Below, piece after piece: positions 6,826 to 10,591 of a stretch of 64,000 nucleotides of DNA. The translations under genes were made by a program, and so were the position numbers. The stretch lies in contig JAHFSU010000002.1 of assembly GCA_023265595.1 (NCBI GenBank), positions 21,105 to 85,104 of the forward strand, in the 5' to 3' direction. The stretch is from Deltaproteobacteria bacterium (GTDB taxonomy: Bacteria > UBA10199 > SPLOWO2-01-44-7). A model generated the notes under the pieces. That model saw only the letters and a list, made by a program, of their open reading frames with translations. It did no database searches and had not been told where the DNA came from. Every line of letters begins with the position of its first letter. Positions within the stretch are counted from its first letter, which is position 1.

Positions 6826-7209
6826 TCACGGTTTTTGAGGCAAATGAAACCGGATTTTTTCTAGAAGAATTTCGATCGAATAGGGCTTCCGGAAAAATTC
6901 CTCAGCGCCCGCGGCTTTCGTTTCAATTTCAAGACGAGGATCATCCATCGCCGTAATAATGATGATCGGAATTTTTTCGGTGTCCGGATGCGATCGCAAT
7001 GTCTTCAAGACCGACTGGCCGGTACCCGCCGGCATTCTCAAATCGAGCAGAATCAAATGGGGCTTCTGTTTATGAGCCGCCTCAACAGCCCGCACCCCTT
7101 CATAAGCAGCGGAGGTTTCATATCCCTCAAACTCCAGACGGGTCCGCAGCGTTTTGACAAGATCGACATCATCATCCACAACCAAAATCCTGAATTTTGA
7201 AAGACTCAT
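6826..7209 (-). CDS. Single-domain response regulator (receiver)
   Basis: 127 aa REC domain (VVDDD…ILLDLRMP…IITAM…FRKPY). Confidence 0.85.
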   Translation of the reverse strand: MSLSKFRILVVDDDVDLVKTLRTRLEFEGYETSAAYEGVRAVEAAHKQKPHLILLDLRMPAGTGQSVLKTLRSHPDTEKIPIIIITAMDDPRLEIETKAAGAEEFFRKPYSIEILLEKIRFHLPQKP

Positions 7210-7577
7210 TTTTCCCCCACACTCTTTTTTATTTTTCCCAGCAAATGGACAAAATCAAACGGCTTGGTAATATATTCGTCTGCCCCGGCCTCCAACCCCC
7301 AAAATCGGTCTTCTTCTCTTGTCTTGGCGGTCACCATAATAATCTTCACCGATTGCGTTGCCGGATTTTTCTTAAGCGTTCTACAAACTTCAAAACCGTT
7401 TACCTTGGGCATCATGATATCCAAAACAATGAGATCGGGGATATCCGCTTTGGCCTTGGAGAGGGCTTCTTCACCATCGTAGGCAACGTCAACCTCAAAC
7501 CCTTCCGCCTCGATACGCAGTTGCAATAATTCAACAAGGTCCTTTTCATCGTCGACAATCAAAATTCTTTTTTTCAT
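7206..7577 (-). CDS. Single-domain response regulator (receiver)
   Basis: 123 aa REC domain (IVDDEKD…IVLDIMMP…MVTAK…ITKPF). Overlaps its neighbours by 4 nt. Confidence 0.85.
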   Translation of the reverse strand: MKKRILIVDDEKDLVELLQLRIEAEGFEVDVAYDGEEALSKAKADIPDLIVLDIMMPKVNGFEVCRTLKKNPATQSVKIIMVTAKTREEDRFWGLEAGADEYITKPFDFVHLLGKIKKSVGEK

Positions 7578-9016
7578 ACCATTTCACCTTCCCCTTTTTT
7601 TATCCGCTCCAGTGCCACTTCAAGCAATCGATCCACACTCGTGGCATCGTTAGGATAAGAAACAATGCCGACACGCAACAGCGGTTTCTGCACAAGATGG
7701 AGTTCAGTGACCAACCTCTCTTGAATAAGCTGTTCCACCCTTGTAGCGATGGTTGCGGCCCCTTCTGCCGGAGTCTGAGGCAAAATCATCACAAAATCTT
7801 TCAAGGTGTAGCGAAATAACAGATCTTTTTTGCGCAAAGAAGATTTTTTCACCTCGTCTTCAATACCATGGAGTATGGTTTCCAACTCTTGTCCCTTTCC
7901 TCCTTTAACCGAACGGAAATTGTCCAATGCAATAACAGCCAACGCCAGAGGGGTGCCGCTCCTACTGGCTTCATCCATCGTCTGGCGGAGCGCAAAACGG
8001 AGATCCGTGACGGGATCATATTGCGGCAGGGTAAAATAGAATTGGGCCCCTTCTCCCAATTCAGATTCCACCCAGATTTTTCCCTGATGATGTGCCACAA
8101 TTTCTTTGCAAATAGAAAGCCCCAATCCTGTCCCTTTATATCCCGCCGCACCGGAGGGCCTTTGCAATTGTTCAAATTTGTTGAAAAGCCTTCCTTGATC
8201 TTCTTTGGCAATACCGAGGCCATCATCGAGAACGCCAACCTGAAGGAACCCTTTCACAAGAGAGGGCTGTGCTGTAATCCAGATTTTTTTTCTGGCAAAC
8301 CGAAGGGCATTGTTCAAAAGATTGTGCAAAACCTGCGTCACGGCATCCCCATCGACATATGCAGACGGAAGCTCTTTGGGGAGTTCCTCTCTGAGTTGGA
8401 TATACTTTTCCTTCGCGATCAGATGATAATCACTGACAACCTCCTCAATGAGATGCAAGAGATTGACTCGCCTTCGGTGGATAGTTGCCTTGCCCGATTG
8501 AAGCCGTGAAACCTCTAATACATTTTCGATCAGACGGGAGAGATTGTCGATATGTCTGCTGGTTGTTTCAACCAGTTTAGTCTGTTTATCGGTCAATTTT
8601 CCCATGACCCCGTCTTTGAGATTCCAGATTGCCCCCTTGATGATCGTGAGGGGGCTTCTCAACTCATGAGAAAGATTGCTGATGAACTCATCCTTTTGCT
8701 GTTCCAATGTTTTGCGCTCTGTAACGTCAAAAAAAACAAGAACCGATCCGTGATTTTTTGTCCCCTCTAAAAGGGGCGTTCGAAAATATTCGACAGAAAA
8801 AGATTCCCCGTTTTTTTTGAAAAAGAGAGTCGCTTTGTCCAACATTTGGTCTTTGAGGAGGAGAGAAATCGGCTGATGAATAAGCTCCTCATGGGGCCAT
8901 CCCAGTATTTTTTCGGCAAAGGAATTAACAAAACAGACTTTGGTCTCTTTATCGATGGCGATAATACCTGCGCCGAGACAATCCAAAATCGATTGGGATA
9001 AATTATTTTTGGTCAT
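7574..9016 (-). CDS. Cytoplasmic PAS sensor histidine kinase with a C-terminal degenerate GGDEF domain (GG[DE]EF replaced by TLKDF, I-site RKKD retained)
   Basis: 480 aa. PAS-like N-terminus. HisKA H-box (LSHELRSPLT). HATPase_c G-boxes (GTGLGLSICKEIV). The C-terminal ~140 aa align along their length with the GGDEF fold (LALAVIALDNFRSV … LRKKDLLFRYTLKDFVMILPQT … VGIVSYPND), but the active-site motif is lost while RxxD is kept. Confidence 0.8.
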   Translation of the reverse strand: MTKNNLSQSILDCLGAGIIAIDKETKVCFVNSFAEKILGWPHEELIHQPISLLLKDQMLDKATLFFKKNGESFSVEYFRTPLLEGTKNHGSVLVFFDVTERKTLEQQKDEFISNLSHELRSPLTIIKGAIWNLKDGVMGKLTDKQTKLVETTSRHIDNLSRLIENVLEVSRLQSGKATIHRRRVNLLHLIEEVVSDYHLIAKEKYIQLREELPKELPSAYVDGDAVTQVLHNLLNNALRFARKKIWITAQPSLVKGFLQVGVLDDGLGIAKEDQGRLFNKFEQLQRPSGAAGYKGTGLGLSICKEIVAHHQGKIWVESELGEGAQFYFTLPQYDPVTDLRFALRQTMDEASRSGTPLALAVIALDNFRSVKGGKGQELETILHGIEDEVKKSSLRKKDLLFRYTLKDFVMILPQTPAEGAATIATRVEQLIQERLVTELHLVQKPLLRVGIVSYPNDATSVDRLLEVALERIKKGEGEMV

Positions 9017-9085
9017 AAAAATTCGGAGGGGACCATAGCATCAATGCCGACGGCTGTCATGGACTCGCTATATGAGGGAAAACCG

Positions 9086-9883
9086 CTATTTGGGGTTATG
9101 CGGCAAAAGAAAATGAACGCTGGCTCCCTGTGAACGATTCTCAACCCACATTTTTCCTTTCAGCCATTGGATCTGCTCTTTGCACATGGCCAAAATGAGA
9201 CCGGTGCCACGATGTCCCACCGAACCGGCCGATTTGTTGGTCGAAACCATTTTATCAAAAATAATTCCCGGCTCTTCACGAGGAAGTCGGGGGCCATCAT
9301 CCATAACGGTCACTTGAATACCCTCCTTCACCAGCTGAACAACCACCTTGGCCTCTTTTTTGGCATATTGCAGTGAATGATCCAGAAGATTAGTCAGAAT
9401 TTGTGAAGTCAAATCGGCATCGGTGTCCAAATCGACAAGATTTTTGGGGGATTCCATGGAAAGATCTATTTTTCTTGTCCGACTCACCGTTTCAAAATTG
9501 TCAACAACCTCTTTCACCAAACTCTCAATGTTGACACGGCTCAATTTGGGGCTTACCAAGCCGTGTTCCATATTGGTAAAATCGAGAAGGCCGTTGACCA
9601 TTCGAATCAAACGGTCGATATTCCGATTGGTTACCTCAATACTCCTCATCTGTTTTTCCGTGAACTCACCCAAAACGCCATCCATTAGATTACAAATGTT
9701 TCCCTTGATGATTGTCAGGGGGGTTCTGATTTCATGGGAAACAAGCATGATAAACTCATCTTTGAGTTTGTTAATTTTAATTTGTTTGTTGAGTTTTGCT
9801 TCGAGGTCGGAGATCGCCACCGCCATTGATTTGAGATCCCTCAGGAAGGATTCTTTCTCATTGATTTTTGCAGACTCCTCCAT
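9086..9883 (-). CDS. Soluble histidine kinase (coiled coil + HisKA + HATPase_c), no sensor domain
   Basis: 265 aa. H-box VSHEIRTPLT. ATP-lid GTGLILAMCKEQI. No TM segments. Confidence 0.8.
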   Translation of the reverse strand: MEESAKINEKESFLRDLKSMAVAISDLEAKLNKQIKINKLKDEFIMLVSHEIRTPLTIIKGNICNLMDGVLGEFTEKQMRSIEVTNRNIDRLIRMVNGLLDFTNMEHGLVSPKLSRVNIESLVKEVVDNFETVSRTRKIDLSMESPKNLVDLDTDADLTSQILTNLLDHSLQYAKKEAKVVVQLVKEGIQVTVMDDGPRLPREEPGIIFDKMVSTNKSAGSVGHRGTGLILAMCKEQIQWLKGKMWVENRSQGASVHFLLPHNPK

Positions 9884-10005
9884 GTTTTTAGGCCTCTCCT
9901 TAAATGTAAGTGCAAATAATATGCCTAATTTTGAATAGTTAAAAATAGGACAACGATTTCTAATGATATGAATTTATTTATTATTTTTTAAAAAATTATA
10001 CGAAT

Positions 10006-10077
10006 GGTCAAATTTGCGTCACCCACAATCGTCAAAATTTTGACGATTTAGGGGACGTTCCACCAAAATTTTGACGC
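10006..10077. promoter_or_regulatory. Cluster of three related palindromic sites (core TCAAAATTTTGACG; 10030-10045 is a perfect 16-bp palindrome CGTCAAAATTTTGACG) in the receiver/kinase intergenic region
   Basis: Seen directly. Sites at ~10007 (degenerate), 10030-10045 (perfect) and 10063-10076 (one arm imperfect). They lie 150-200 bp upstream of the kinase start at 9883 and just 3' of the receiver gene. Confidence 0.4.
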
Positions 10078-10079
10078 TT

Positions 10080-10463
10080 TTAAATTAACGATTTGATGAC
10101 TTGGACCAGCTCTGCCGAATCAAACGGTTTGGTTAGCACTTTGGCAATCCCTAATGCCTCGGCCCGCGTTGCGAGACCTTTTATCACCTTGGCGGTAATT
10201 ACAATAATAGGAATATTTTTTGTGGCCTGATTTGCTTTCAATTGCTGACACACTTCCCACCCCCCCATTCTCGGCATCGCGATATCGAGTAAAATAATAT
10301 CAGGCTTGAATGCCCTTGTCTGTTCGAGCCCTTGTTCTCCATCGAGTGCCACATCGACCAAAAACCCGAATTTTTGAAGACGCAAAAGAAGAAGCTGAAC
10401 CAGATCCCCTTCATCGTCGATAATAAGCACCTTTTTTTTATTATGGTATTTTAAATGCATCAT
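10080..10463 (-). CDS. Single-domain response regulator (receiver)
   Basis: REC domain (LIIDDEGD…ILLDIAMP…VITAK…LTKPF). The start was chosen at an internal Met; the track ORF begins 30 nt upstream. Confidence 0.8.
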   Translation of the reverse strand: MMHLKYHNKKKVLIIDDEGDLVQLLLLRLQKFGFLVDVALDGEQGLEQTRAFKPDIILLDIAMPRMGGWEVCQQLKANQATKNIPIIVITAKVIKGLATRAEALGIAKVLTKPFDSAELVQVIKSLI

Positions 10464-10591
10464 TGAGTTAAAAACCATAAGTATTTCTAACATTTAATCC
10501 GCACCTTCGGTACGTCTCAAATGTTGAAATACTTTATCTGTCACCATTTTTTCTTGTATATATTATTCCACAATTGATTATAGGCGTCACC

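Follow-up and report, generated by a model that had tools for sequence, protein, structure and literature searches.

A Pel-linked two-component module with a candidate c-di-GMP-receptor histidine kinase in an uncultured Deltaproteobacteria bacterium

We analyzed a 64,000-nucleotide (nt) stretch of DNA (the window) from the metagenome-assembled genome (MAG) of an uncultured Deltaproteobacteria bacterium (contig JAHFSU010000002.1, positions 21,105 to 85,104), where a run of signaling genes on the minus strand leads into a variant operon for the polysaccharide Pel. Within this run lies the gene of a histidine kinase, HK1 (7574-9016, 480 amino acids (aa)), which ends in a degenerate GGDEF domain and whose protein was found identical on two metagenome contigs. 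We favor, at a probability of about 0.6, the reading that these genes form a two-component module dedicated to Pel, the kinase of which is itself a receptor for cyclic di-GMP (c-di-GMP). Second messenger and phosphorylation would then probably control the same polysaccharide machine jointly.

HK1 is a soluble, cytoplasmic PAS-DHp-CA kinase with a dead GGDEF domain joined directly to its ATPase (CA) domain. Pfam places PAS at 8717-8998, HisKA at 8492-8698 (with H117) and HATPase_c at 8021-8353, and the GGDEF domain forms the C-terminal ~148 aa of the protein (7577-8020). The His and ATP boxes are canonical (SHELRSP, NLLNNALRF, DDGLGI and GTGLGLS), with the majority residue of 235 aligned kinase cores at 9/9 tracked positions. 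The C-terminal domain matches the GGDEF profile PF00990 well above its cutoff (E = 3.2e-13, 50.2 bits vs. 23.8), with aa 342-470 covering profile positions 18-149 of 161. An AlphaFold2 (AF2) model, for which a 37-sequence family alignment served as input, agrees with this assignment (predicted local distance difference test score 93.7, predicted TM-score 0.87), and its best 50 Foldseek matches in the PDB were all GGDEF domains, including WspR, PleD, GcbC and DosC (TM-score up to 0.77). The initial annotation, made from the sequence alone, had described a PAS kinase ending in a GGDEF-fold domain that has lost GG(D/E)EF and kept an RxxD I-site five residues upstream, and both parts of that description are borne out here, the GGDEF profile search, one of the checks it had named, having come out in its favor.

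The I-site assignment comes from the alignment register. In phmmer searches against the PDB, the HK1 segment sslRKKDllfryTLKDFvmilp aligns column for column with ksvReVDivirygGDEFtvml of Geobacter 6d9m, and the same register was returned against GcbC, a Leptospira-type Rec-GGDEF protein and DosC (chain 5euh reads RPADLVARYGGEEF), so that RKKD-LLFRY-TLKDF is in register with the RxxD-5aa-GGDEF of four PDB cyclases. This column-for-column alignment identifies RKKD (R395 to D398, 7823-7834) as the I-site and TLKDF (aa 404-408, 7793-7807) as the GGDEF position (A-site) five residues downstream; the third I-site Arg is R426, in IATRVEQ (7739-7741). We take R395, D398 and R426 to be the counterparts of R359, D362 and R390 in the primary I-site of PleD. 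The equivalent triad is R763, D766 and R794 in SgmT, a histidine kinase of Myxococcus xanthus whose GGDEF I-site binds c-di-GMP (PMC3509222). The signature of an active diguanylate cyclase is absent from HK1, with TLKDF in place of GG[D/E]EF, and in the 6d9m alignment the first metal-binding Asp is replaced by Ala and the base-binding Asn by Lys, so the domain cannot be a cyclase.

The same pattern characterizes a family of kinases with a directly fused GGDEF domain. We inspected the best 120 database matches to HK1, about 50 of which have the HisKA-HATPase-GGDEF layout, and aligned the C-terminal domains of 52: the GGDEF motif is degenerate in 52/52, and the R and D of RxxD, together with an Arg ~28 residues downstream, are almost invariant. 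A curated alignment of 37 sequences (mean column identity 33%, 16-53% identity to HK1) has only five positions conserved at ≥90% (P5, R69, D72, R100 and P129, corresponding to P331, R395, D398, R426 and P455 of HK1), and three of these five are the I-site triad. Searching 1.84 billion representative proteins with the profile of this alignment returned 103 matches at E ≤ 1e-30. Among the inspected sequences, 153 domains sit directly behind a kinase core; GG[DE]EF is kept in 0/153, exact RxxD in 120/153 and the third I-site Arg in 148/153. The domain starts where the ATPase domain ends, without a linker domain, in 152/153, and forms the end of the protein in 137/153. The N-terminal sensor region ranges from 0 to >600 aa, and sensors are exchanged freely across the family (PAS, REC, GAF or none) around a constant CA-GGDEF unit. 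Judged from these alignments, selection appears to retain the I-site pocket and the CA-GGDEF junction and to discard catalysis, which is the sequence signature of a kinase-coupled c-di-GMP receptor domain. The family comprises at least ~150 clusters at 50% identity, mostly from MAGs of uncultured "Deltaproteobacteria", Omnitrophota and Elusimicrobia, and current annotation of its members goes no further than "ATP-binding protein" or "response regulator".

HK1 belongs to ten consecutive minus-strand open reading frames (ORFs) that run from 10493 down to the start of the window, as first described, and on the longer source contig (L001) the run continues through the rest of pelD, two more genes, pelF and pelG. 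The initial annotation had also given the junctions as 4-nt overlaps or tiny gaps; five are indeed ATGA start/stop overlaps and two others are gaps of 6 and 32 nt, but the remaining gaps of 69 and 196 nt are too large for that wording. Contiguity with a Pel-like locus, which it had likewise claimed, is upheld by the identification of PelD-, PelF- and PelG-like proteins and by the conservation of the linkage in five lineages.

The full PelD-like protein has 451 aa on the source contig; its gene enters the window with its 5′ part (1-1003), which encodes transmembrane segments and a GAF domain (GAF_3, E = 5e-7), and the protein ends in a weak degenerate GGDEF match (E = 0.0037, below the Pfam cutoff). 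Its RxxD lies in CREMD, of which REMD aligns to the I-site of 6d9m, and the motif is kept in the PelD-like proteins of loci L010, L005, L013 and L011 (the set reads CREMD, CREMD, LREMD, LRPMD and MRKTD). All these PelD-like proteins keep RxxD, and with HK1 the operon thus encodes two I-site-bearing degenerate GGDEF proteins. Downstream of the pelD-like gene, precomputed Pfam annotation of the source contig, on which the PelF-like and PelG identities rest, lists a 329-aa HEAT/TPR protein, a 653-aa HEAT protein, a PelF-like protein (486 aa, DUF3492 and Glycos_transf_1) and PelG (481 aa, PF16933). The PelD-like protein with its RxxD, the PelF-like protein and PelG together make the neighboring operon a genuine, if variant, pel locus.

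The pelA position is split between a GH114-family glycoside hydrolase gene (5951-6793, 280 aa, Glyco_hydro_114 E = 3e-21), which is the first gene of the Pel modification/export block and has the same position in L002 and L014, and a gene for a 684-aa protein (3900-5954) at the place of the rest of pelA. The latter protein has no Pfam or NCBIfam match and only a weak precomputed DUF2194 annotation, and it has orthologues in L002, L005/L012, L013, L014 and L011, being conserved across all five loci. The PelB-like protein (1375-3903, 842 aa, multiple TPR families) gives partial matches to the export TPR proteins PgaA and BcsC and keeps its position in all five loci; Pfam gave no match to its C-terminal half, where a barrel is predicted from locus position only. 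The two HEAT-repeat genes stand between the pelD-like and pelF-like genes (10842-12919 of L001), and no PelC-like gene was recognized in the pel locus. In NCBIfam the matches were confined to generic kinases and regulators, with scores well under the cutoffs, and the PelD-like protein had none.

Exact-protein look-ups of 10 family members showed the kinase, receivers and variant pel operon together in five lineages with kinases 38-59% identical, in the shared order kinase, one or two receivers, pelA-like, pelB-like, receiver, pelD-like. Besides the window these are L002 (kinase P0002, 59% identity, a "Deltaproteobacteria bacterium" MAG: RECa-HK2-HK1-REC-REC-GH114-695 aa-TPR-REC, with PelD and PelE orthologues on another contig of the same MAG), L005/L012 (P0005, 44%: REC-HK-GGDEF, REC, REC, 686 aa, TPR, REC, PelD-like, 345 aa, HEAT), L013 (P0008, 38%: kinase, REC, 684 aa, TPR, REC, PelD-like, 344 aa, HEAT) and L014 (P0013, 43%: kinase, REC, REC, two inserted genes, GH114, 698 aa, TPR, REC, PelD-like). 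The two genes inserted in L014 between the receiver pair and GH114 (5439-7385) encode an AAA_14/DUF4143 ATPase and a 203-aa protein. The sensor of the Pel-linked kinases varies from PAS (window, L002) to receiver (L005, L014) to receiver plus PAS (L013) around a constant DHp-CA-GGDEF core. A scan with a PelD alignment gave two loci in GTDB genomes and one in JGI metagenomes, namely the L002 MAG already described, a copy of the L005 type and a distant pel locus from Magnetococcales (L011); L011 has neither a kinase of this family nor a receiver next to pelD.

The cluster holds four stand-alone CheY-like receivers, in agreement with the initial annotation (Pfam Response_reg, E = 3e-21 to 1e-31), and all four have the acidic DD pair, phospho-Asp, T/S and Lys. 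RECa (10080-10493, 137 aa, E = 9e-26, ATG at 10493 with alternative starts at 10478 and 10463) has its phospho-Asp D70 at 10284-10286 and a 76%-identical orthologue in the same place in L002. RECb (7206-7577, 123 aa, E = 1e-31, D53 at 7419-7421) overlaps the HK1 stop with its start (ATGA), and orthologues with 44-50% identity directly follow the kinase in L005, L013 and L014; a RECb-type receiver directly follows the kinase in four lineages, with a 4-nt overlap in three (L013 and L014 among them). RECc (6826-7209, 127 aa, E = 2.5e-24, D56 at 7042-7044) shares an ATGA overlap with RECb and has orthologues in L002 (82%), L005 (50%) and L014 (50%), so that the RECc type occurs in four lineages; a further orthologue (47%) adjoins a non-pel kinase with a degenerate GGDEF domain in L008. 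RECd (1000-1368, 122 aa, E = 3e-21, D53 at 1210-1212) is wedged between the pelB-like and pelD-like genes, its stop overlapping the pelD-like start (ATGA), and was correctly noted before as a receiver embedded in the exporter operon. It belongs to a distinct orthologue group present in 5/5 pel-linked loci (43-70% mutual identity, ≤35% to any other receiver) and overlaps or abuts the pelD-like start in the pel-linked lineages.

None of the four receivers (122-137 aa, single-domain) carries an output domain in Pfam, and Pfam found no regulator with a DNA-binding or enzymatic output domain in the cluster. Cle-type CheY-like c-di-GMP effectors are defined by an arginine-rich C-terminal extension after the receiver fold; we rejected this class for the present receivers, which end ~5-10 residues after helix 5 and have no such extension.

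The second kinase-like protein, HK2 (9086-9883, 265 aa), is sensorless and carries good Pfam scores for both HisKA and HATPase_c. Its H-box is intact (H50 in SHEIRTP, 9719-9739). In the N-box (NLLDHSLQY) His169 replaces the Mg-ATP Asn, in the G1 box (DDGPRL) Arg199 replaces the second Gly, and in the G2 box (GTGLILA) Ile230 replaces the third Gly. The His falls under the conserved Asn when HK2 is aligned to HK853- and WalK-type chains. Asn occupies the N-box position in 216/218 other aligned kinase cores and His only in two HK2 orthologues; among ~220 aligned cores the substitutions, including the G2 Ile, are unique to these two. Three further sensorless orthologues (253-258 aa, 60-62% identity) came from a dedicated search and share these changes, which brings the ATP-site substitutions to 5/5 known orthologues; the next relatives (≤33%) are canonical. 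The view that HK2 is a recent duplicate of HK1 is not supported, its identity to HK1 (40.8%) being like that to many family members (38-42%).

The initial annotation had counted two kinases; HK1 is canonical, and the assignment of HK2 is doubtful with three ATP-binding residues lost. HK2 is a conserved and selected protein that, as read from these residues, is very probably unable to autophosphorylate with ATP, and it is probably a pseudokinase, phosphatase or phosphotransferase. Spo0B and ChpT are kinase-like folds without ATP binding, and RetS, which is among the PDB matches of HK2, regulates exopolysaccharide by pairing with another kinase. HK2 resembles these three in keeping the DHp His and the HisKA/HATPase fold without the ATP-binding residues, and differs from them in its length of 265 aa, its lack of a sensor, its good scores for both domains and its restriction to two lineages. 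It may serve as a phosphatase, as a Spo0B/ChpT-like phosphotransferase or as a RetS-like partner of HK1, roles that fit alike.

RECa and HK2 are separated by a 196-nt intergenic gap (9884-10079) with a sigma-70-like promoter (-35 GTGACG at 10022-10017, -10 TATAAT at 10000-9995, spacer 16, 10/12 match), the best such match of the first 11.5 kb, and HK2 has a strong ribosome-binding site (AAGGAGAGG) before its start. A short distance upstream of the -35 is a perfect 16-bp palindrome (CGTCAAAATTTTGACG, 10030-10045), with a degenerate copy 31 nt further upstream (10061-10076). Palindrome and promoter (TTGACG-17-TATAAT) recur in the same gap of L002 (palindrome at 8973-8986). The exact 14-mer GTCAAAATTTTGAC, flanked by (C) and (G), stands upstream of operons with family kinases in L003 (886-899), L007 (7494-7507) and L016 (7492-7505), the last two being non-pel operons with an ECF sigma factor and kinase. 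In the window the palindrome has four matches at ≤3 mismatches against 1.03 expected, a number reached in 0/100 shuffles. Near-copies occur at 32357-32372 (two mismatches, inside the clpX ORF) and at 46461-46476 (three mismatches), near the 5′ end of a 439-aa ORF without assigned family. A terminator scan gave 13 sites against 14.9 in shuffled sequence, none of them in an intergenic gap on the coding strand. In an Rfam search at the gathering threshold the window yielded two tRNAs and nothing else, with no c-di-GMP riboswitch ahead of the operon. The conserved promoter sets RECa apart, and a RECa unit followed by an operon from HK2 to pelG is a likelier layout than the single transcript from 10493 to 1 proposed initially, with read-through possible.

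The half-sites of the palindrome recall a known pel regulator. The Pseudomonas FleQ box is GTCaNTAAAtTGAC (cited in PMC6120874). The palindrome GTCAAAATTTTGAC shares its GTCA/TGAC half-sites, the 6-nt AT-rich spacer and the pel promoter context; three central positions differ, the organism is unrelated, and the palindrome also precedes the non-pel kinase operons of L007 and L016. Another 30 ORFs of the window, scanned with Pfam, yielded no GGDEF, EAL or HD-GYP enzyme and no FleQ-like regulator, and with no FleQ-like gene seen in the window the resemblance is only a lead.

On these grounds we propose the following model. c-di-GMP would bind the I-site of HK1 and alter the behavior of the kinase, most likely by shifting its kinase/phosphatase balance, because the CA-GGDEF junction is fixed and linker-less; by analogy with SgmT, the effect might instead be on HK1 localization. 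HK1 would phosphorylate the translationally coupled single-domain receivers RECb and RECc, and phosphorylation would also reach RECd, directly or indirectly, which would be translated together with PelD. A phosphorylated receiver would dock on the PelD/E/F/G synthase complex, with an output that is most likely post-translational, because the cluster lacks any regulator with an output domain for DNA binding or enzymatic activity. PelD would independently sense c-di-GMP through its own RxxD, so that both signals would be required for polymerization. HK2 probably targets the same receivers, either with phosphatase or His-phosphotransferase activity or as a partner of HK1, and transcription from HK2 to pelG probably starts at the gap promoter under a factor binding the palindrome.

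Several points weigh against this model. Exact RxxD is missing from 33/153 family members, mostly with K, H or Q at the first position. At the position that we take, from PleD R313 numbering and the alignment to PDB chains, to be that of the secondary I-site, HK1 has Glu, and PleD-style cross-linking of domains through this site is not supported. RECd has the most divergent helix-1 sequence among the receivers, and the promoter and terminator scans consist of consensus matches only. The initial proposal that one kinase feeds all four receivers is conjectural, RECa and HK2 being confined to two of the five lineages. Of the eleven nearest family members examined, six have no demonstrated link to pel: five occupy other sites (P0004 and P0007, in the ECF-sigma/PAS-kinase operons of L007/L016; P0006, 41% identity, in a glycosyltransferase-rich cluster, L017; and P0014 and P0018, in other non-pel contexts), and for P0009 the contig ends at the kinase gene. 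With close relatives outside pel the kinase family is broader than Pel control, one clade being firmly Pel-linked. Around P0006 (L017, 3554-16034) are genes for a GT2-TPR protein, two GT4 proteins, PMT_2, an HDOD protein, a PAS kinase and a receiver. There are hints that the family has been recruited repeatedly to surface-polysaccharide loci. Finally, c-di-GMP changed neither autophosphorylation nor phosphotransfer of SgmT in vitro, and its effect was on localization only (PMC3509222).

This last observation is the basis of the strongest competing explanation, in which c-di-GMP bound by the GGDEF domain of HK1 does no more than position or sequester the kinase, perhaps at the Pel synthase or with a local cyclase, PAS being the activity switch. 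The only experimentally studied kinase with a GGDEF I-site behaves in this way, PopA is cited as another case of localization (PMC3509222), and HK1 has a separate PAS sensor. The GGDEF domain is, however, fused directly to the ATPase domain in all but one of the family members counted, whereas SgmT has a receiver between them, and the exchange of sensors around a constant CA-GGDEF unit suggests that this unit carries the core regulatory function; we therefore hold localization as the sole effect to be possible, at low odds. SgmT is a c-di-GMP-receptor kinase linked to control of the extracellular matrix (PMC3509222), as HK1 may be. Their architectures differ: SgmT is GAF-HK-REC-GGDEF with an A-site GGGVF, and HK1 is PAS-HK-GGDEF with TLKDF and no receiver between. 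SgmT is encoded by an orphan gene and has the DNA-binding partner DigR, whereas here there are single-domain receivers only and the genes head a pel operon. Homologues of SgmT were found only in myxobacteria (PMC3509222). We rejected HK1 as a SgmT orthologue on domain order, sensor type (PAS, not GAF) and the lack of a DNA-binding partner in the cluster, and the label "SgmT-type" in the initial annotation does not hold.

A second alternative gives HK2 the central place, in a four-step phosphorelay from HK1 to a receiver, to the ATP-blind HK2 acting as a Spo0B/ChpT-like His-phosphotransferase, and on to RECa or RECd. HK2 keeps the phosphorylatable His and the DHp helix in addition to having lost the N-box Asn and the G1 and G2 Gly in all its orthologues, DHp helix 1 is near-identical in HK1 and HK2 (TIIKGAIWNL vs. 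TIIKGNICNL) and could address the same receivers, and four receivers are more than a simple pair needs. HK2 and RECa, however, are present only in the window and L002 lineages; missing from 3/5 pel-linked lineages, HK2 is accessory and not at the core of the mechanism, and the relay cannot be the core mechanism either. A Pfam search of the ten proteins, at E up to 0.01, matched no Hpt family, which leaves the term "phosphorelay", used for this array at the outset, unproven. HK2 also keeps beside its His the ExxT motif that supports phosphatase activity in HisKA kinases, and HK2 could just as well be a dedicated phosphatase or form heterodimers in the manner of RetS. We consider the relay doubtful.

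The C-terminal domain of HK1 might also be a ligand-free relic that provides a surface for dimerization or docking, with R/D/R kept for folding or an intramolecular contact. Non-nucleotide roles are common among degenerate GGDEF domains (one GGDEF domain reportedly docks to HubP), and a fifth of the family departs from exact RxxD. What is kept, however, is exactly the three c-di-GMP contacts of the primary I-site, all catalytic and substrate positions having drifted, and a structural role would presumably not single out surface-exposed charged residues, which makes such a relic unlikely. That the signaling genes are mere neighbors of pel, controlling something else (an unlinked transcription factor, motility) with no Pel function, is very improbable: several close family members are not near pel (L007/L016 with an ECF sigma factor, L008, L015) and the promoter separates RECa from the rest, but gene order is kept in five lineages despite the divergence of their kinases, RECc lies 32 nt from the first pel gene with no terminator-like site, and one receiver sits inside the pel operon, overlapping pelD.

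The model of a c-di-GMP-receptor kinase acting on Pel combines elements known from separate systems. Control of Pel by c-di-GMP is a textbook case with only two known points of action, the promoter (through FleQ) and the synthase (through PelD). PelD of P. aeruginosa (TM-GAF-degenerate GGDEF) senses c-di-GMP for Pel through RxxD, as may the PelD-like protein with RxxD in the present operon, and differs from HK1 in being a membrane protein without kinase domains. We know of no kinase or receiver gene in the canonical pelABCDEFG operon, and two-component genes are not mentioned in the main text of a published survey of pel operons. In CckA and ShkA of Caulobacter and RavS of Xanthomonas, c-di-GMP directly shifts the kinase/phosphatase balance or phosphotransfer, as proposed for HK1; these proteins bind it via a catalytic domain, a pseudo-receiver or a PAS domain, and to our knowledge none of the three uses a GGDEF I-site. 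Few kinases are known to us to read c-di-GMP (SgmT, CckA, ShkA and RavS); of these, SgmT alone does so through a GGDEF I-site, and we know of no catalytic effect there; in full-text searches of the literature SgmT was the only kinase found described with a GGDEF I-site receptor. For the receivers, a model is offered by the single-domain regulator EpsW of M. xanthus, which when phosphorylated activates the exopolysaccharide enzyme EpsZ post-translationally (PMC12802240). By analogy, RECd might act on the PelD-G complex, with the differences that EpsZ is a phosphoglycosyl transferase of a Wzx/Wzy system rather than a Pel synthase and that the Dif CheA-type system stands upstream of EpsW.

Other features of the window are recorded here briefly. 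At 11372-12400, an ORF for EPSP synthase starts 3 nt after a tRNA gene (11372-11444) and encodes 317 aa (267 aa in the gene call of the source), which match the 417-position Pfam profile in two stretches; it may be truncated or mis-started. Minus-strand ORFs at 14841-16418, 17843-19570, 35818-38052 and 45185-46504 (525, 575, 744 and 439 aa) had no Pfam match at E up to 1e-5. Tad/Flp-type pilus genes at 47036-50727, which encode a T2SSF protein and a T2SSE ATPase (642 aa) that begins with a CbiA/ParA-like domain, add a further surface-attachment system to the window.

Kinases that sense c-di-GMP, and control of Pel by this messenger, are established concepts. What is new, as far as we have found, is the family of kinases with a directly fused I-site GGDEF domain, its conservation, a clade built into pel with a pelD-coupled receiver, and the coincidence-detector model. 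More tentatively, and with a probability well short of even, the directly fused GGDEF kinases may be a large class of c-di-GMP-gated histidine kinases in which the I-site-only domain is a built-in allosteric switch; in one clade this switch would be hard-wired to Pel through docking of RECd on the synthase, Pel polymerization would act as a coincidence detector, dependent on c-di-GMP at PelD together with a phospho-signal, itself conditioned by c-di-GMP, that arrives at the same complex, and HK2 would be a phosphatase or phosphotransferase. A sizeable and poorly annotated protein family now has a specific and falsifiable proposed function. The locus is a compact, conserved and genetically self-contained test case for the gating of a kinase by an I-site-only GGDEF domain, and it lets one ask whether single-domain receivers control a synthase-dependent polysaccharide machine post-translationally and what an ATP-blind kinase paralogue does.

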